Virus record (IMG/VR): IMGVR_UViG_2711768034_000011
Direction: 5' to 3' (one strand)
DNA length: 8,060 nucleotides
Origin: a virus
Lineage: Duplodnaviria > Heunggongvirae > Uroviricota > Caudoviricetes
The position numbers were made by a program, and so were the translations under genes. The notes below the pieces were generated by a model. That model did no database searches, was not told the origin of the DNA, and worked only from the letters and a program-made list of their open reading frames with translations. Positions 1 through 8,060 of the stretch are shown here, one piece after another (the stretch's first letter is position 1; every line of letters starts with the position of its first letter).

Positions 1-1254
1 ATGCTGGAACAAATGGGCATTGCCGCGAAGCAAGCCTCGTATAAATTAGCGCAACTCTCCAGCCGCGAAAAAAATCGCGTGCTGGAAAAAATCGCCGATG
101 AACTGGAAGCACAAAGCGAAATCATCCTCAACGCTAACGCCCAGGATGTTGCTGACGCGCGAGCCAATGGCCTTAGCGAAGCGATGCTTGACCGTCTGGC
201 ACTGACGCCCGCACGGCTGAAAGGCATTGCCGACGATGTACGTCAGGTGTGCAACCTCGCCGATCCGGTGGGGCAGGTAATCGATGGCGGCGTACTGGAC
301 AGCGGCCTGCGTCTTGAGCGTCGTCGCGTACCGCTGGGGGTTATTGGCGTGATTTATGAAGCGCGCCCGAACGTGACGGTTGATGTCGCTTCGCTGTGCC
401 TGAAAACCGGTAATGCGGTGATCCTGCGCGGTGGCAAAGAAACGTGTCGCACTAACGCTGCAACGGTGGCGGTGATTCAGGACGCCCTGAAATCCTGCGG
501 CTTACCGGCGGGTGCCGTGCAGGCGATTGATAATCCTGACCGTGCGCTGGTCAGTGAAATGCTGCGTATGGATAAATACATCGACATGCTGATCCCGCGT
601 GGTGGCGCTGGTTTGCATAAACTGTGCCGTGAACAGTCGACAATCCCGGTGATCACAGGTGGTATAGGCGTATGCCATATTTACGTTGATGAAAGTGTAG
701 AGATCGCTGAAGCATTAAAAGTGATCGTCAACGCGAAAACTCAGCGTCCGAGCACATGTAATACGGTTGAAACGTTGCTGGTGAATAAAAACATCGCCGA
801 TAGCTTCCTGCCCGCATTAAGCAAACAAATGGCGGAAAGCGGCGTGACATTACACGCAGATGCAGCTGCACTGGCGCAGTTGCAGGCAGGCCCTGCGAAG
901 GTGGTTGCTGTTAAAGCCGAAGAGTATGACGATGAGTTTCTGTCATTAGATTTGAACGTCAAAATCGTCAGCGATCTTGACGATGCCATCGCCCATATTC
1001 GTGAACACGGCACACAACACTCCGATGCGATCCTGACCCGCGATATGCGCAACGCCCAGCGTTTTGTTAACGAAGTGGATTCGTCCGCTGTTTACGTTAA
1101 CGCCTCTACGCGTTTTACCGACGGCGGCCAGTTTGGTCTGGGTGCGGAAGTGGCGGTAAGCACACAAAAACTCCACGCGCGTGGCCCAATGGGGCTGGAA
1201 GCACTGACCACTTACAAGTGGATCGGCATTGGTGATTACACCATTCGTGCGTAA
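1..1254 (+). CDS. proA: Gamma-glutamyl phosphate reductase (glutamate-5-semialdehyde dehydrogenase), complete 417 aa
   Basis: 417-aa ORF starting at window position 1; I recognise the sequence as enterobacterial ProA; location immediately upstream of thrW matches the known proBA-thrW arrangement (established knowledge). Confidence 0.95.
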
Positions 1255-1368
1255 ATAAAACCGGGTGATGCAAAAGTAGCCATTTGATTCACAAGGCCAT
1301 TGACGCATCGCCCGGTTAGTTTTAACCTTGTCCACCGTGATTCACGTTCGTGAACATGTCCTTTCAGG

Positions 1369-1444
1369 GCCGATATAGCTCAGTTGGTAGAGCAGCGCAT
1401 TCGTAATGCGAAGGTCGTAGGTTCGACTCCTATTATCGGCACCA
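1369..1444 (+). tRNA. thrW: tRNA-Thr (anticodon CGU), 76 nt with encoded CCA end
   Basis: Sequence GCCGATATAGCTCAGTTGGTAGAGCAGCGCATTCGTAATGCGAAGGTCGTAGGTTCGACTCCTATTATCGGCACCA; 7-bp acceptor stem GCCGATA/TATCGGC, D-loop and GTTCGACTCC T-arm motifs, anticodon CGT in the anticodon loop. A known phage integration target. Confidence 0.93.
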
Positions 1445-1458
1445 TTTAAATCAATAAG

Positions 1459-2622
1459 TTACACATCATTAGTACCTTCCTTATTTTTTGACTGGGACAA
1501 ATTTGGGACCGATGGGTTCAGGATCGAGTCTATTTGCCGTGCGTGTTCGGTAAGGTGATTAGGTGCGAGGTGAGCATATCGACGAACCATTTCGATAGAC
1601 TCCCAGCCTCCCATTTCCTGTAACACTGACAACGGGACACCGGCTTGAACCAGCCAACTTGCCCAGGTGTGTCTCAAGTCATGAAATCTGAAATCATCAA
1701 TACCAGCTCGTCTCAGCGCCGCTTTCCAGGCTGTGTTTGCGTCATACCGCATCTTCCTGACTGTTGGCGCTTTCGTTCCGTCTGGTTTGGTACAGCTTTC
1801 CTTGTACACAAATACCCAACGGTGATGATTCCCGATTTGTTTTTTCAATACGCGACATGCAGTATCATTCAGCGCAACGCCAATTGCGCGGTTTGATTTA
1901 CTCTCTTCCGGGTTTATCCATGCCACCCGGCGCTGCATGTCTATTTGTTGCCATTCAAGGTTGATGATGTTCGAGCGTCTTAAGCCTGTTGCCAGTGCAA
2001 ATTCAACAACAGACTTTAATGGCTCCGGACATTCATCAATCAGCCTTTGTGCTTCATGGGGCTCCAGCCAGCGGATCCGTTTATTCTTTGGTTGAGGCAC
2101 TTTAATAATTGGTGCCTTATCCAGCATTTTCCATTCACGCTCTGCGGCTCTTAGTAGGGCCTTTATAAATGAAAGATGCGTAGCCTTCGTTGCAACGGAC
2201 GCTGGTTTTGGCGTGTATTCTGGAACAGGTTTCCCTTTTTTTCTACATGCTTCTGCCCTGAGTTTCCAGTTTTCCTCATGACGCCGGTTCGTCATTTTCT
2301 GCATTGCTGAATAAATTTTTGATTCAGTAATGTCTCTTAGTTGCATTCCTGCGAAATGTTGAAGCCAGAATCCGATCCGGCTTTTGTCATCGTCCAGTGA
2401 TTTTTTATGTGCTTTCTCTTCGAGCCACCTGATACACGCCTCCTCGAACGTCATATCAGGTATTTCACCAAGTTTGCTGACCCGCCATGCTTCAGCCTTT
2501 AGCTTGTCATGGAGCTCTGTCGCCTGCCTTTTGTCCTTTGTTCCAAGAGACTGTTTAAATCTTTTACCGTTCGGCAATGTGAAACTGGCGTACCATATTT
2601 CACCTCTGCGGAAGAGTGACAT
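1459..2622 (-). CDS. int: Phage integrase, tyrosine recombinase, P22-type (387 aa)
   Basis: 387-aa ORF ending 14 nt from the tRNA 3' end; N-terminus [22 protein letters not shown] and C-terminal [13 protein letters not shown]...VRRYAHL catalytic boxes; SD-like AGAGGAAAG upstream of the ATG at 2622. P22 integrates at thrW (established knowledge). Confidence 0.93.
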
Positions 2623-2849
2623 TTTCTTTCCTCTGTTATGCCATCACCCGCGCTCACCTGGACAGTATGCAGCGGAGACTGAAGCGCCGCAATGCAGGCT
2701 TGTCGTGTTGTGAGGTAAGGAGATTTTAGTTTAGTGGGGTCTTTGCGTGTTGCCTGTAGGCGGCCTGTTCGTATCCAGTTGGTAGCGGTAGGTCTGGATA
2801 TCTTGAGAAACTGACAGGCCTCATCGAGTGTGAGGCTGTATGATTCCAT
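2499..2849 (-). CDS. xis: Excisionase / AlpA-like helix-turn-helix DNA-binding protein (116 aa from ATG at 2849; the listed ORF extends to a GTG at 2879)
   Basis: HTH-like segment [26 protein letters not shown]; AGAGGT SD 4 nt before the ATG at 2849; sits immediately upstream of int on the same strand. The 3' end overlaps the int 5' end by 124 nt in another frame; the 116-aa size matches my recollection of P22 Xis. Confidence 0.7.
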
Positions 2850-3099
2850 GGTTACCTCTGCTTTTTGAACGCATGTCACGTAACTTCTTAATGTGTTCTG
2901 CCGTTTCGATCTCTTCTGCTATCCGATCTGCATCAGCTTTATTCACAGGTTCAAAGTCATGATTAAAGCGGAACATGCTGGCGATACATGTTCCGCCTTT
3001 TCGGATGTAGTGAACTTTGTTGTGGGTAGAACGCAGGATTTTGCAGGGAGTGCCGTGGTGGTCGACGTACCAGGTGTTAGGAAAAATGATTCTGAACAT
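2821..3099 (-). CDS. Hypothetical phage protein, 92 aa, function unknown
   Basis: ORF with SD GAGGTG 5 nt upstream of the ATG at 3099; co-directional and tightly packed with neighbours (29-nt overlap with the xis start). I do not recognise the family. Confidence 0.6.
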   Translation of the reverse strand: MFRIIFPNTWYVDHHGTPCKILRSTHNKVHYIRKGGTCIASMFRFNHDFEPVNKADADRIAEEIETAEHIKKLRDMRSKSRGNHGIIQPHTR

Positions 3100-3146
3100 T
3101 TTTACACCTCAGTTGGACGATGTTGAAATTTGCTGCTTTGAGGCCA

Positions 3147-3365
3147 TCACAATCCCCATTGTTTGTTCTTAAGTTCGATCTCCTCCTGGCAACTTGCACA
3201 AGTCCGACAACCCTGAACGGCCAGGCGTCTTCGTTCATCTATGGGATCGCCACACTCACAACAATGAGTGGCAGATATAACCTGGTGGTTCAGACGACGC
3301 ATTTTTATTGCTGTATTGCGCTGTAATTCTTCGATTTCTGATGCTGAATCAATGATGTCTGCCAT
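3147..3365 (-). CDS. TraR/DksA-family C4 zinc-finger protein (72 aa), putative RNA polymerase-binding regulator
   Basis: Spacing C-x2-C-x17-C-x2-C (CCECGDPIDERRRLAVQGCRTCASC) typical of the DksA/TraR zinc finger; TraR-like proteins are common in lambdoid early-left operons (established knowledge). Confidence 0.8.
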   Translation of the reverse strand: MADIIDSASEIEELQRNTAIKMRRLNHQVISATHCCECGDPIDERRRLAVQGCRTCASCQEEIELKNKQWGL

Positions 3366-3371
3366 CTTCCA

Positions 3372-3467
3372 TTAATCCCTGAATTGTTGGTTAATACGCT
3401 TGAGGGTGAATGCGAATAATAAAAAAGGAGCCTGTAGCTCCCTGATGATTTTGCTTTTCATGTTCAT
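3372..3467 (-). CDS. Putative small ORF, 31 aa (MNMKSKIIRELQAPFLLFAFTLKRINQQFRD), not in the supplied ORF track
   Basis: First ATG overlaps the stop of the upstream 72-aa gene as ATGA; AAGGAG lies 8 nt before the in-frame second ATG; its TAA stop is 6 nt before the TraR-like ATG. It encloses a hairpin plus U-tract, so it may instead be a terminator or attenuator. Confidence 0.3.
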   Translation of the reverse strand: MNMKSKIIRELQAPFLLFAFTLKRINQQFRD

Positions 3468-3679
3468 CGCTCCTTAAAGACGCCGTTTAACATGCCGATC
3501 GCCAGGCTTAAATGAGTCGGTGTGAATCCCATCAGCGTTACCGTTTCGCGGTGCTTCTTCAGTACGCTACGGCAAATGTCATCGACGTTTTTATCCGGAA
3601 ACTGCTGTCTGGCTTTTTTGATTTCAGAATTAGCCTGACGGGCTATGCTGCGAAGGGCGTTTTCCTGCTGAGGTGTCAT
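3464..3679 (-). CDS. Hypothetical phage protein, 72 aa from ATG at 3679 (listed ORF extends to a TTG at 3778)
   Basis: ATG at 3679 overlaps the stop of the upstream 27-aa ORF (ATGA); its stop overlaps the start of the downstream small ORF (ATGA). Product MTPQQENALRSIARQANSEIKKARQQF... is not recognised. Confidence 0.55.
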   Translation of the reverse strand: MTPQQENALRSIARQANSEIKKARQQFPDKNVDDICRSVLKKHRETVTLMGFTPTHLSLAIGMLNGVFKER

Positions 3680-3759
3680 TGAACAAGTCCCATGTCGGCA
3701 AGCATAAGCACACAGAATATGAAGCCCGCTGCCAGAAAAATGCATTCCGTGGTTGTCAT
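3676..3759 (-). CDS. Putative small hydrophobic peptide, 27 aa (MTTTECIFLAAGFIFCVLMLADMGLVQ), not in the supplied ORF track
   Basis: Strong SD GGGAGG (3764-3769) 4 nt upstream of the ATG at 3759; ATG overlaps the methyltransferase stop (ATGA) and its TGA overlaps the next gene ATG (ATGA); hydrophobic core long enough for one membrane helix. Confidence 0.4.
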   Translation of the reverse strand: MTTTECIFLAAGFIFCVLMLADMGLVQ

Positions 3760-4313
3760 GCAGCCTCCCGACGGGCAAGAATCCTTGAGCCGAACGCCAT
3801 CAACTCTCCACGATCAACGGTCGTAAAGTGGCAGTGTGTACGGGGGTATGGGTGCCAGATAATGAGCATCGAGCCTTTATTATTTCCACTGACGGGTTTC
3901 TCAGTGAGTGGGTTAATAAATGCCAGTCGTCCTGCCGTGATGAATCTGACCTCACTGGCGGTTTGTATCGCTTCATGAAACCATCCGACAGATGTGTCAG
4001 CAGGCAATAACATTACACATCCCACACTACTGAATTTGTTTTCAGTGGCTGCCTTTTTCACAAAAGGGGAAATATTGCTGTATGGTGGATTCAACCAGAC
4101 ATAACCAGAGGCATATCCCATTGCTTCAGGCCATGAAGTGGTTAATGTGTTCTGCTCCTGTGAGATAAAAAGCCGACATAGTCGGTTTTTTTCGCTGGCT
4201 GCAGCATCAAGTTGAAAAACGAACTCTGCATTAAGCGCAGCAAAAATCTCTGGTGGTGTGCGCCAGCTGTCGCGATGTTCGGCAGGAGTATTGCTTCCGG
4301 TGAAATCAGTCAT
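3756..4313 (-). CDS. Phage-type DNA N6-adenine methyltransferase (185 aa)
   Basis: NPPY catalytic motif (WLNPPYSN) and N-terminal W-x-TPPEIF...LDAAAS pattern typical of the phage N-6-adenine methyltransferase family; no adjacent restriction endonuclease gene. Confidence 0.85.
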   Translation of the reverse strand: MTDFTGSNTPAEHRDSWRTPPEIFAALNAEFVFQLDAAASEKNRLCRLFISQEQNTLTTSWPEAMGYASGYVWLNPPYSNISPFVKKAATENKFSSVGCVMLLPADTSVGWFHEAIQTASEVRFITAGRLAFINPLTEKPVSGNNKGSMLIIWHPYPRTHCHFTTVDRGELMAFGSRILARREAA

Positions 4314-4369
4314 ACAGCCCCCCGTTTATTATTTATCTCCTCAGCCAGCCGCTGTGCTTTCAGTGGATT

Positions 4370-4403
4370 TCTGATAACAGAAAGGCCGGGAAATACCCAG
4401 CCT
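4370..4403 (-). terminator. Candidate intrinsic terminator between exo and the methyltransferase gene
   Basis: On the minus-strand transcript: AGGCUGGG-UAUUU-CCCGGCCU (8-bp stem including one G-U pair) followed by UUUCUGUUAUC, located 62 nt downstream of the exo stop. Confidence 0.4.
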
Positions 4404-4464
4404 CGCTTTGTAACGGAGTAGATGAAAGTGATCGCGCCTACCCGGATATTATCGCGAGGATGCT

Positions 4465-5145
4465 TCATCGCCATTGCTCCCCAAATACAAAACCAATTTC
4501 AGCCAGTGCCTCGTCCATTTTTTCGATGAACTCCGGCACCATCTCGTCAAAATTCGCCATGTACTTTTCATCCCGCTCAACCACGACATAATGCAGGCCT
4601 TCACGCTTCATGCGCGGGTCATAGTTGGCAAAGTACCAGGCATCTTTTCGCGTCACCCACATGCTGTACTGCACCTGGGCCATGTAAGCCGACTTTATGG
4701 CCTCGAAACCACCGAGCCGGAACTTCATGAAATCCCGGGAGGTAAACGGGCATTTCAGCTCAAGGCCATTGCCGTCACTGCATAAACCATCGGGAGAGCA
4801 GGCGGTACGCATACTTTCGTCGCGATAGATGATCGGGGATTCAATAACATTCACGCCGGAAGTGAACTCAAACAGGGTTCTGGCGTCGTTCTCGTACTGT
4901 TTTCCCCATGCCAGCGCCTTAGCATTAACTTCCGTAGCCACACCGGTGCAAACCTCAGCCAGCAGGGTGTGGAAGTAGGACATTTTCATGTCAGGCCACT
5001 TCTTTCCGGAGCGGGGTTTTGCTATCACGTTGTGAACTTCTGAAGCGGTGATGACGCCGAGCCGTAATTTGTGCCACGCATCATCCCCTTGTTCGACAGC
5101 TCTCACATCGATCCCGGTACGCTGCAGGATAATGTCCGGTGTCAT
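4465..5145 (-). CDS. exo: Lambda-type exonuclease (Red alpha), 226 aa
   Basis: Near-identical to the phage lambda Exo sequence as I recall it ([40 protein letters not shown]...); 4-nt ATGA overlap with bet as in lambda. Confidence 0.95.
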
Positions 5146-5927
5146 GCAGCCACCTTCTGTTCAGAGGCTTTCTGTTTCAGGAATCCAAGAGCTTTCACTG
5201 CTTCGGCCTGTGTCAGTTCCGACGATGCGCGAATGTCGCGGCGAAATATCTGGGAACAGAGCGGCAATAAGTCGTCATCCCATGTTTTGTCCAGGGCAAT
5301 CAGCAGAGTGTTAATCTCCTGCATGGTTTCATCGTTAACCGGAGTGATGTCGCGTTCCGGCTGACGTTCTGCAGTGTATGCGGTATTTTCGACAATGCGC
5401 TCGGCTTCATCCTTGTCATAGATACCAGCAAATCCGAAGGCGAGACGGGCACACTGAATCATGGCTTTATGCCGTAACATCCGTTTAGGATGCGACTGCC
5501 ACGGCCCCGTGATTTCTCTGCCTTCACGGGTTTTGAATGGTTCGCGGCGGCATTCATCCATCCACTCGGTAACGCAGATCGGATGATTACGGTCCTTGCG
5601 GTAAATCCGGCATGTACAGGATTCATTGTCCTGCTCAAAGTCCATGCCATCAAACTGCTGGTTTTCATTGATGATGCGGGACCAGCCATCAACGCCCACC
5701 ACCGGAACGATGCCGTTCTGCTTATCAGGGAAGGCGTAAATTTCTTTCGTCCACGGATTAAGGCCGTACTGGTTGGCGACGATCAACAATGCGATGAACT
5801 GCGCATCGCTGGCATCACCTTTAAATGCCGTCTGGCGAAGAGTGGTGATCAGTTCCTGTGGGTCGACAGAATCCATGCCGACACGTTCAGCCAGCTTCCC
5901 TGCCAGCGTTGCGAGTGCTGTACTCAT
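5142..5927 (-). CDS. bet: Lambda-type single-strand annealing protein Bet (Red beta), 261 aa
   Basis: Near-identical to lambda Bet as recalled ([66 protein letters not shown]...). Confidence 0.95.
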
Positions 5928-5932
5928 CCGTT

Positions 5933-6229
5933 TTATACCTCTGAATCAATATCAACTTGGTGGTGAGCAATGGTTTCAACCATGTACCGGATGTGTTCTG
6001 CCATGCGCTCCTGAAACTCAACATCGTCATCAAACGCACGGGTAATGGCTTTTTTGCTGGCCCCGTGGCGTTGCAAATGATCGATGCATAGCGATTCAAA
6101 CAGGTGCTGGGGCAGGCCTTTTTCCATGTCGTCTGCCAGTTCTGCCTCTTTCTCTTCACGGGCGATCTGCTGGTAGTGACGCGCCCAGCTCTGAGCCTCA
6201 AGACGATCCTGAATGTAATAAGCGTTCAT
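5933..6229 (-). CDS. gam: Lambda-type Gam (RecBCD inhibitor), short 98-aa form only
   Basis: [21 protein letters not shown]... matches lambda GamS; AGGAG SD 7 nt upstream. The GamL-type N-terminal extension starts at an ATG at 6350 but is out of frame here (see findings). Confidence 0.93.
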
Positions 6230-6304
6230 GGCTGAACTCCTGAAAATGGCTGTGAAAATAGCGCCCGCGAAATGCCAGGCTGATTAGGAAAACAGGAAAG
6301 GGGG

Positions 6305-6448
6305 TTAGTGAATGCTTTTGCTTGATCTCAGTTTCAGCATTAATATACATTTTTTATAAGCGTCGACGGCTTCACGAAACATCTTTTCATCGCCAATAAA
6401 AGTGGCGATAGTGAATTTAGTCTGGATAGCCATAAGTGTTTGATCCAT
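6305..6448 (-). CDS. kil: Lambda-type Kil (host cell-division inhibitor), 47 aa
   Basis: [33 protein letters not shown]...[10 protein letters not shown] matches lambda Kil as recalled; AGGAG SD upstream. The listed 89-aa ORF 6305..6574 is this gene with a spurious upstream extension. Confidence 0.85.
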
Positions 6449-6581
6449 TTTTTGGGACTCCTGGCTGATTAAGTATGTCGATAAGGCGTTTCCATCCGTC
6501 ACGTAATTTACGGGTGATTCGTTCAAGTAAAGATTCGGAAGGGCAGCCAGCAACAGGCCACCCTGCAATGGCATATTGCAT
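6417..6581 (-). CDS. cIII: Lambda-type CIII (FtsH/HflB inhibitor), 54 aa
   Basis: Below the ORF-track length cutoff. Manual translation of the minus strand from the ATG at 6581 gives MQYAIAGWPVAGCP... and ends ...[15 protein letters not shown] with TAA at 6417-6419; AAGGAG SD 7 nt upstream; 32-nt overlap with kil as in lambda. Confidence 0.85.
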   Translation of the reverse strand: MQYAIAGWPVAGCPSESLLERITRKLRDGWKRLIDILNQPGVPKNGSNTYGYPD

Positions 6582-6653
6582 GGTGTGCTCCTTATTTATA
6601 CATAACGAAAAACGCCTCGAGTGAAGCGTTATTGGTATGCGGTAACGCCGCGC

Positions 6654-7022
6654 TCAGGCGGCTTTGATAGTCATATCATCTGAATCAAATATTCCTGATG
6701 TATCGATATCGGTAATTCTTATTCCTTCGCTACCATCCATTGTAGGCCATCCTTCCTGACCATTTCCATCATTCCAGTCGAACTCACACACAACACCATA
6801 TGCATTTAAGTCGCTTGAAATTGCTATAAGCAGAGCATGTTGCGCCAGCATGATTAATACAGCATTTAATACAGAGCCGTGTTTATTGAGTCGGTATTCA
6901 GAGTCTGACCAGAAATTATTAATCTTGTGAAGTTTTTCCTCTGTCATTAAGTCATGGTCGATTTCAATTTCTATTGATGCTTTCCAGTCGTAATCAATGA
7001 TGTATTTTTTGATGTTTGACAT
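6654..7022 (-). CDS. ea10: Lambda-type Ea10 (Ssb-like early protein), 122 aa
   Basis: MSNIKKYIIDYDWKASIEIEIDHD... matches lambda Ea10 as recalled. Confidence 0.9.
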   Translation of the reverse strand: MSNIKKYIIDYDWKASIEIEIDHDLMTEEKLHKINNFWSDSEYRLNKHGSVLNAVLIMLAQHALLIAISSDLNAYGVVCEFDWNDGNGQEGWPTMDGSEGIRITDIDTSGIFDSDDMTIKAA

Positions 7023-7129
7023 CTGTTCATATCCTCACAGAAAAAAATCGCCCTCACATTAGAGGTCAAAGAAGATTTCCAATAATCAGAACAAGTCGGC
7101 TCCTGTTTAGTTACGAGCGACATTGCTCC

Positions 7130-7157
7130 GTGTATTCACTCGTTGGAATGAATACAC
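7130..7157. repeat. Perfect 9-bp inverted repeat GTGTATTCA / TGAATACAC with a 10-nt spacer
   Basis: Read directly from the sequence, in the intergenic region between the AT-rich ORF and ea10. Confidence 0.6.
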
Positions 7158-7181
7158 AGTGCAGTGTTTATTCTTTTGTTT

Positions 7182-7211
7182 GCGTGAAAATGAAACCCGC
7201 CTGAGCGGGTT
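7182..7211 (-). terminator. Candidate intrinsic terminator overlapping the stop of the AT-rich ORF
   Basis: Stem AACCCGC / GCGGGTT (7 bp, loop CTGA) at 7194-7211; on the minus transcript followed by UCAUUUUCACGC; on the plus strand followed by a T5 run 8 nt away, so possibly bidirectional. Confidence 0.35.
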
Positions 7212-7763
7212 ATGACCACTTTTTGTTTGGATTTCGTTGGTGAGCGTGGTTTACAGGATTATTTGATATACCCCATAACTCTGACTCGCTTATCTCTACA
7301 CGAGAGAAAGACCTGCTTTCTTTCAGTTCTTTTATAAACCTAGAACCTACGATGACATCTATTGTCCCAGAAAGTTCTTGTAAAAGATCTTTGTTTTTTC
7401 TGAGGAAGAAAACATCTTCTTTATATTTAATTTTTACATAGAATTTATTCTGTATTTTTAATATATCAAAGCATGGCAGATATCTATATCCCTCATGCTT
7501 TCGCCACTGCTTAACAATTATAACATCTCTTTCATTTACTGCATTAATCAGCCCAAGACCAAGTATAGGTATGAATATTCTATTGTCTGCCGAAAGCGTA
7601 CAATTATCACCACCAGGCAAATATGTATAAATCATGTCGGAATTTTTATACGCATCAACGAATGCACGTAAGAATCGTACATATTTTTGCCATCCGTTTA
7701 TACCAAATTTACCATATAAGTATTCTTTATTTGTTAGAAGAAAACTATTTGTATCAGGAGCCT
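7210..7763 (-). pseudogene. AT-rich orphan ORF of unknown function, probably 5'-truncated by IS1 (at least 183 codons of open frame; first ATG at 7635 gives 141 aa)
   Basis: Markedly lower GC than the flanking lambda-like genes; the frame stays open for 42 sense codons upstream of the ATG at 7635 right up to the IS1 junction, with no in-frame ATG/GTG/TTG and no SD before 7635. Confidence 0.5.
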
Positions 7764-8060
7764 GGTAATGACTCCAACTTATTGATAGTGTTTTATGTTC
7801 AGATAATGCCCGATGACTTTGTCATGCAGCTCCACCGATTTTGAGAACGACAGCGACTTCCGTCCCAGCCGTGCCAGGTGCTGCCTCAGATTCAGGTTAT
7901 GCCGCTCAATTCGCTGCGTATATCGCTTGCTGATTACGTGCAGCTTTCCCTTCAGGCGGGATTCATACAGCGGCCAGCCATCCGTCATCCATATCACCAC
8001 GTCAAAGGGTGACAGCAGGCTCATAAGACGCCCCAGCGTCGCCATAGTGCGCTCACCGAA
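7764..8060 (-). mobile_element. IS1, partial (right inverted-repeat end, 297 of about 768 bp; continues beyond the window)
   Basis: Begins with the IS1 terminal inverted repeat GGTAATGACTCCAACTTATTGAT at 7764 and contains the insB 3' coding region on the minus strand. Confidence 0.95.
7779..8060 (-). CDS. insB: IS1 transposase InsB, 3' portion (5' end lies beyond the window)
   Basis: Translation ...[93 protein letters not shown] matches IS1 InsB as recalled. Confidence 0.9.

Follow-up and report, generated by a model that had tools for sequence, protein, structure and literature searches.

The window analysed here (the whole 8,060-nt stretch of IMG/VR virus record IMGVR_UViG_2711768034_000011) is very probably the arm of a lambdoid prophage that lies next to its left attachment site (attL), inserted in the tRNA gene thrW beside proA on a chromosome of the Escherichia coli/Shigella type. 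The prophage is built of interchangeable modules and is probably defective. The gene proA occupies 1–1254, upstream of thrW, the bacterial attachment gene, which encodes tRNA-Thr(CGU) on the plus strand at 1369–1444 (identified by ARAGORN and by the Rfam tRNA model at 71.8 bits). All genes from 1459 to 7763 lie on the minus strand and read leftward. The original prediction for this DNA had described a P22-type int/xis/attachment module at thrW joined to a lambda-type Red/kil/cIII/ea10 module, and both modules are present, with phages SfI and SfV standing closer to the first of them than P22 does. Nucleotide alignment with lambda and P22, which had been proposed as the check, was run, and neither of the outcomes named as a refutation was seen: Int and Xis are 90% identical to the P22 proteins, and the DNA of the Red block agrees with lambda at 97.6%. 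The similarities to the reference phages greatly exceed what chance would give (blastn E = 0).

This mosaic design is already known: it has been published, it is widespread, and the region is an ordinary prophage mosaic. Phage SfI (JX509734; Sun et al. 2013, PMC3636060) has been reported to share its integration module with SfV, SfX and P22 and to have an early region that is homologous to lambda's, and annotation of the same genes by the Prokaryotic Genome Annotation Pipeline is already present in many E. coli genomes. As a case of textbook lambdoid modular mosaicism, the region has little importance beyond its correct annotation. We describe below the attachment site and integration module, the lambda-derived genes with the cassettes exchanged among them, and the right end, where a patchwork of alleles raises the question of how the two ends came to be contiguous.

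The attachment core lies within thrW

The attL core is a 46-bp sequence, ATTCGTAATGCGAAGGTCGTAGGTTCGACTCCTATTATCGGCACCA, at 1399–1444, which equals both the annotated attP core of SfI and positions 21293–21338 of P22; the latter include the annotated 23-bp attP core of P22. In the DNA alignments, the similarity to SfI and the similarity to P22 each start exactly at 1399, inside thrW, and the 46-bp core is in print as common to SfI, SfII, SfV, SfX and P22 (PMC3636060). The core had been expected at about 1400–1458, overlapping the 3′ end of thrW. The overlap is confirmed; the extent is not, as the core ends at 1444 and bases 1445–1458 are sequence of the phage arm. The distance given for the integrase gene was exact, its stop codon lying 14 nt from the end of thrW.

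No second attachment core was found in the window with up to 8 mismatches allowed. E. coli F829 carries a related full-length prophage, 98.9% identical to the window over 1–7181, in which an exact second core, the right attachment site (attR), lies 42,986 bp away. No gtr genes are annotated in the stretch of E. coli F829 that was fetched, the attR end included. By analogy with lambda, P22 and SfI, Int (together with Xis for excision) would recombine the 46-bp core, and insertion would regenerate the 3′ end of thrW. The tRNA gene would then stay intact because the core duplicates that end, the phage core supplying the 3′ 46 nt.

The integration module is of the SfI/SfV type

The int gene (1459–2622, minus strand) encodes a tyrosine integrase of 387 amino acids that belongs to the thrW-specific P22/SfI type. 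Its match to the Pfam family Phage_integrase (PF00589, 9.5e-48) spans model positions 1–171 of 172, that is, a full-length domain, and the catalytic residues R215, K242, H314, R317 and Y349 are invariant in an alignment with the integrases of P22, SfI and lambda. At the amino acid level, Int is 99% identical to the SfI protein, 90% to that of P22 and 22% to lambda Int. The excisionase gene xis (2499–2849, minus strand) encodes 116 amino acids with an HTH_17 domain and is 90% identical to P22 Xis over 116 of 116 residues. The two genes overlap by 124 nt, exactly as in P22, and both proteins have the P22 lengths. The claim that int and xis resemble the P22 type and use its attachment gene is thus upheld, these features and the identical 46 bp of thrW being shared with P22 (NC_002371); everything past xis differs.

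At the DNA level, identity to SfI is 97.8% over 1399–3661, and identity to P22 is 81.3% over 1399–2866, where the P22 similarity stops. Judged by these alignments, the closest integration module is of the SfI/SfV type. P22 belongs to the same family but is more distant, with a DNA identity of 81%. An Int protein identical to the one described here is listed in 1015 blocks of a public assembly collection, and 9 of the 10 places listed adjoin proA.

The similarity to P22 is uneven, at 72–81% in most of int and 90–93% over the part that encodes the N terminus of Int and over xis (2501–2800). Phage 2G7b shares the sequence from about 2600 rightward at 91–100% identity and has a different int body. 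Taken together, the two patterns suggest a further recombination joint near the start of int, inside xis.

Lambda-type early genes from exo to ea10

The genes from exo to ea10 had been described as nearly identical to lambda at the protein level, and this description holds: identities range from 95.7 to 100% and the gene order is collinear with that of lambda. In window order, and all on the minus strand, these genes are exo, for the Red exonuclease (4465–5145, 226 amino acids, 97.3% identical to lambda Exo over its full length); bet, for the Red annealase (5142–5927, 261 amino acids, 99.6%); gam, for the RecBCD inhibitor (5933–6229, in a form of 98 amino acids, 98% identical to residues 41–138 of lambda Gam); kil (6305–6448, 47 amino acids, 95.7%); cIII (6417–6581, 54 amino acids, 100%); and ea10 (6654–7022, 122 amino acids, 97.5%; Pfam DUF2528, 4e-46). 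The lambda cIII thermoregulator RNA element is also present at 6536–6594 on the minus strand (Rfam RF01804, 88.5 bits against a gathering threshold of 50, E = 3.8e-21), the match covering the full model (1–59). At the DNA level, 4311–7181 is 97.6% identical to lambda 31194–34064 over 2,872 bp, and 4303–7181 is 97.7% identical to SfI. For gam, just the form of 98 amino acids is open, the 40-codon N-terminal extension of the annotated lambda gene (138 amino acids) being out of frame (5933–6350, minus strand).

From what is known of lambda, Exo and Bet would recombine DNA, Gam would block RecBCD, Kil would block cell division, and CIII, whose message carries the RNA thermosensor, would shield CII from FtsH. 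Transcription of these leftward genes would normally start at pL and, with N antitermination, pass internal terminators such as the hairpin at 4382–4404 described below.

Across the wider lambda interval (NC_001416, 30418–34064), the window has collinear early-left genes at 97.3–97.6% DNA identity with proteins at 94–100%, the same hairpin and the same cIII thermosensor RNA. It differs from lambda in carrying Dam for orf63, in having a DUF4222 gene and P22-type xis and int in place of ea22, ea8.5 and the lambda int and xis, in having a phage 434-type gene and the insertion sequence IS1 where lambda has ral, sieB and N, and in the long form of Gam, which is not open.

Two cassettes exchanged within the lambda exo-xis region

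The original prediction had placed a non-lambda accessory block between xis and exo. Foreign DNA is indeed found there, but it comprises only 2867–3169, with the DUF4222 gene, and 3760–4310, with the Dam cassette; the DNA between them (3170–3759, with orf73/TraR and orf61) is 97.3% identical to lambda 30418–31008, with a 1-nt indel, so that this part of the claim fails. On the evidence of gene content and alignment, the so-called accessory block is best read as the lambda exo-xis region, a known region of that phage (PMC8614690), in which orf63 has been replaced by Dam and ea22/ea8.5 by the DUF4222 gene.

The Dam cassette (3756–4313, minus strand) encodes a phage N6-adenine methyltransferase (Pfam Dam, 2.3e-56; TIGR01712, 6.5e-49, above the cut-off). 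The base-level alignment shows that Dam has been swapped for lambda orf63 precisely from start to stop: the ATG (4311–4313) and the stop codon (3756–3758) coincide, with lambda identity breaking at 4311, in the Dam start codon, and resuming at 3759. In related thrW prophages, the slot after orf60a is filled by either Dam or orf63/DUF1382. In the window, orf63 (DUF1382) is not present, its slot being filled by Dam, and no similarity to ea22 or ea8.5 was found, the DUF4222 gene standing there instead. That gene (2821–3099, minus strand, 92 amino acids; Pfam DUF4222, 2.6e-18) occupies the position of lambda ea8.5/ea22; it is common to SfI and phage 2G7b at 99% and has no match in lambda or P22 by DNA alignment.

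Next to Dam lies the homologue of lambda orf60a (DUF1317; 4310–4474, minus strand; Pfam DUF1317, 7.4e-33), which is 94% identical to residues 1–52 of lambda Orf60a. Its probable start is at 4468, its stop codon overlaps the Dam start codon (ATGA), and the last 8 codons of lambda orf60a have been lost. This gene disposes of the proposal that 4314–4464 is intergenic and holds the joint between the two modules; the interval is coding and of lambda type. The joints found here lie instead at 2866/2867, 3169/3170, 3759/3760, 4310/4311 and about 7181. Joints at gene boundaries are classical lambdoid mosaicism, arising from recombination between related phages and prophages, and the corrected breakpoints illustrate exchanges that fall exactly on such boundaries.

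Two further genes of lambda type lie between the cassettes. A TraR/DksA-type zinc-finger gene (3147–3365, minus strand; Pfam zf-dskA_traR, 1.2e-8; TIGR02419) is the homologue of lambda Orf73, the function of which has been described (PMC9239242); lambda itself carries this protein, of 73 amino acids and unannotated, at the aligned position. An orf61-like open frame (3464–3778, minus strand), for which there is a gene call in the contig, gives a blastp identity of 94% to lambda Orf61, and its upstream part (3608–3760) aligns with Orf61 residues 6–56. Relative to lambda, a 1-nt indel joins the orf61 frame to a downstream open reading frame (ORF) of 71 codons, giving a single open frame of 104 codons, of which gene callers annotate 3464–3679 (71 amino acids) alone, in relatives too.

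Phage SfI is the closest published parallel to this arrangement. It shares the identical 46-bp thrW core, an Int protein at 99%, the int-xis-DUF4222-orf73 interval at 97.8% DNA identity and the interval from orf60a to ea10 at 97.7%, and its published lambda segments (30,418–30,910 and 31,206–34,381; PMC3636060) have nearly the lambda breakpoints of the window. SfI differs in that other genes (SfI_0033/0034) stand in the place taken in the window by the end of orf61 and the Dam cassette (3662–4302), in that it runs on into ral and N instead of a 434-type Nun-like gene and IS1, and in that it has gtr serotype-conversion genes at its attR end, which is a part of the prophage outside the window.

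A 434-type segment truncated by IS1

The identity to both lambda and SfI stops at about 7181, an end of the module that the original prediction had not mentioned, and similarity to phage 434 (OL657226) goes on at 97.6% to 7763 (7150–7763). The 434-type segment (7182–7763, minus strand) contains a terminator-like hairpin (7194–7211) and a truncated Nun-like gene (7210–7763). What is left of this gene is its 3′ 184 codons; in phage 434 the gene is annotated as that for a 'Nun C-terminal peptide-containing protein' of 289 amino acids, with the C terminus ...HAHQRNPNKKWS. The gene stands between ea10 and N, in the position of lambda ral and sieB. The fragment matches no family in Pfam or NCBIfam, and its identity rests on the annotation of phage 434. 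The segment likened to phage 434 is the one between ea10 and N; phage 434 has the gene whole, together with a lambda-type int and xis and with orf63 instead of Dam, whereas the gene in the window is truncated by IS1.

The IS1 element is partial, with 297 bp in the window (7764–8060, minus strand; Pfam DDE_Tnp_IS1, 5.7e-48), and is 99–100% identical to IS1 copies. Its terminal inverted repeat, GGTAATGACTCC... (GGTAATGACTCCAACTTATTGATAGTG), begins at 7764, and insB continues past the window edge at its 3′ end. The insertion has cost the Nun-like gene its first 105 codons. The control region with N, nutL and pL is absent from the window and may exist beyond IS1. Within the available sequence, IS1 cuts the leftward operon off from N and pL. 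With IS1 upstream, and by comparison with lambda, this copy of the operon is probably not expressed, and the prophage may be a defective one.

An alternative is that the prophage is intact and inducible, that IS1 has simply inserted into a non-essential gene, and that N, pL and the remaining phage lie beyond IS1. The genes from int to ea10 are all open and 96–100% identical to functional phage proteins, and a related prophage at thrW, that of E. coli F829, has its full length, its exact core repeats lying 43 kb apart. However, the IS1 junction places listed all continue past IS1 into unrelated sequence (the cus operon, IS3 or late phage genes) and not into the 5′ part of the gene, and for the source strain the available sequence ends in IS1. 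We consider an intact prophage rather improbable.

Two points weigh against the reading of the window as the arm of a single, probably defective prophage in thrW. The window is identical over all 8,060 nt to the 29.8-kb draft contig CXWS01000044.1 (GCA_001268745.1), which ends 1 nt further on, inside IS1. The sequence therefore stops inside IS1 and takes in neither attR nor the immunity region nor the structural genes, so that the prophage may be complete or defective. In addition, the right-hand 2.5 kb is identical to a remnant at the tRNA gene argU in other strains, and the contiguity of left and right could be an assembly artefact.

A patchwork of Red alleles and the contiguity of the window

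The exact Exo protein occurs in one contig only of the public collection (GCA_001268745.1), and comparison of the Red genes with other prophages resolved them into a patchwork. The window from 1 to 4806 matches thrW prophages, with 0–1 mismatches in the patch 4311–4806. The patch 4807–5565 has a 100% identical counterpart in the prophage that E. coli WI2 carries at the lambda attachment site (beside ybhC), and differs by about 3% from each of the other loci in the comparison. The patch 5566–8060 matches, with 0–1 mismatches and with the same IS1 insertion point, prophage remnants at argU (the DLP12 site). The alleles of the Red genes are thus shared, patch by patch, with prophages at three separate sites on the chromosome. 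The possibility that 4807–5565 is a blend of two alleles was rejected, as three complete genomes have a natural prophage allele with 100% identity to this patch.

The argU remnants of E. coli, for example those of strains 300081 and NT1F25, resemble the window in the genes from exo to ea10, in the truncated Nun-like gene and in IS1 with its insertion point. They differ in that a truncated integrase abuts exo directly, without the exo-xis region, Dam, xis or the P22-type int. In 5,426 complete E. coli genomes, the best matches to the whole window cover 1–7181 only, and no full-length match runs from the Dam cassette through the Nun-like gene into IS1.

Either prophage recombination or a crossover during draft assembly would give such a pattern of patches, and the data fit both. 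If the window is a real structure, it would derive from homologous recombination or gene conversion between resident lambdoid prophages at thrW and argU, which moved the IS1-truncated right arm into the thrW prophage; we hold this tentatively, at just short of an even chance. The identity pattern is as expected, and the three Red patches are each identical to a different natural prophage. Against this, if the copies are directly oriented, a reciprocal exchange between them would remove the approximately 300 kb between thrW and argU. This interval is essential in a K-12-like gene order, which leaves gene conversion or a changed chromosome order as the only viable routes. On the data available, moreover, such recombination is indistinguishable from an assembly artefact. 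The more specific proposal, that the thrW prophage gained its right arm from the middle of bet onward from an argU remnant, by homologous exchange inside the phage's own Red genes, is possible, with a likelihood somewhat below even. If true, the window would record a recent gene conversion between prophages, or the endpoint of a chromosomal rearrangement, beyond ancient modular mosaicism.

The competing account is a chimera of the draft assembly, in which the sequence from thrW to mid-bet comes from a thrW prophage and the sequence from mid-bet to IS1 from a second prophage remnant, at argU in the same genome, with the crossover in the near-identical Red genes. Several observations are in line with it: the match of 5566–8060 to the argU-site remnants, at 0–1 mismatches, extends to several E. 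coli strains, with 1–4806 matching thrW prophages; all 10 of the long-contig contexts listed for the truncated Nun-like ORF show this one remnant, which has exo beside fimZ and fimbrial genes, without proA; the one annotated example of the truncated Nun-like remnant sits at argU; in none of the 5,426 complete genomes is the Dam cassette contiguous with the Nun-like gene plus IS1; and the source is a short-read draft with a contig that ends in IS1. However, 4807–5565 matches neither parent and is 100% identical to a third type of prophage (that of WI2), which natural patchwork recombination fits better than a crossover between two copies, and assemblers usually break at repeats and seldom cross them. 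We regard an assembly chimera as unlikely, although it deserves to be taken seriously. In draft assemblies more generally, the near-identical Red modules of co-resident prophages and the copies of IS1 are spots of contig breaks or possible mis-joins.

Terminator-like hairpins

A terminator-like hairpin had been predicted in 4314–4464, and a hairpin does exist there, at 4382–4404 on the minus strand within orf60a (−20.5 kcal/mol, z = −4.4, by pattern scan and RNA folding), although it is itself lambda sequence, base for base that of lambda 31265–31287. None of 200 shuffled sequences folded as well. A repeat finder reported no inverted repeat in 4280–4500 at seed 6; the pattern scan and RNA folding do show the hairpin. 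It is probably the lambda terminator tL3, which would lie just downstream of exo; a lambda terminator of that name is mentioned in the literature. By analogy with lambda, the hairpin would act as a terminator.

A simple scan of 1200–8060 gave 15 terminator-like hairpins against 6.7 ± 2.5 in shuffled sequence, or about twice as many. On the minus strand, which is the transcribed direction, hairpins lie between ea10 and cIII (6611–6630), after the Nun-like gene (7194–7211) and after the orf61-like ORF (3425–3443).

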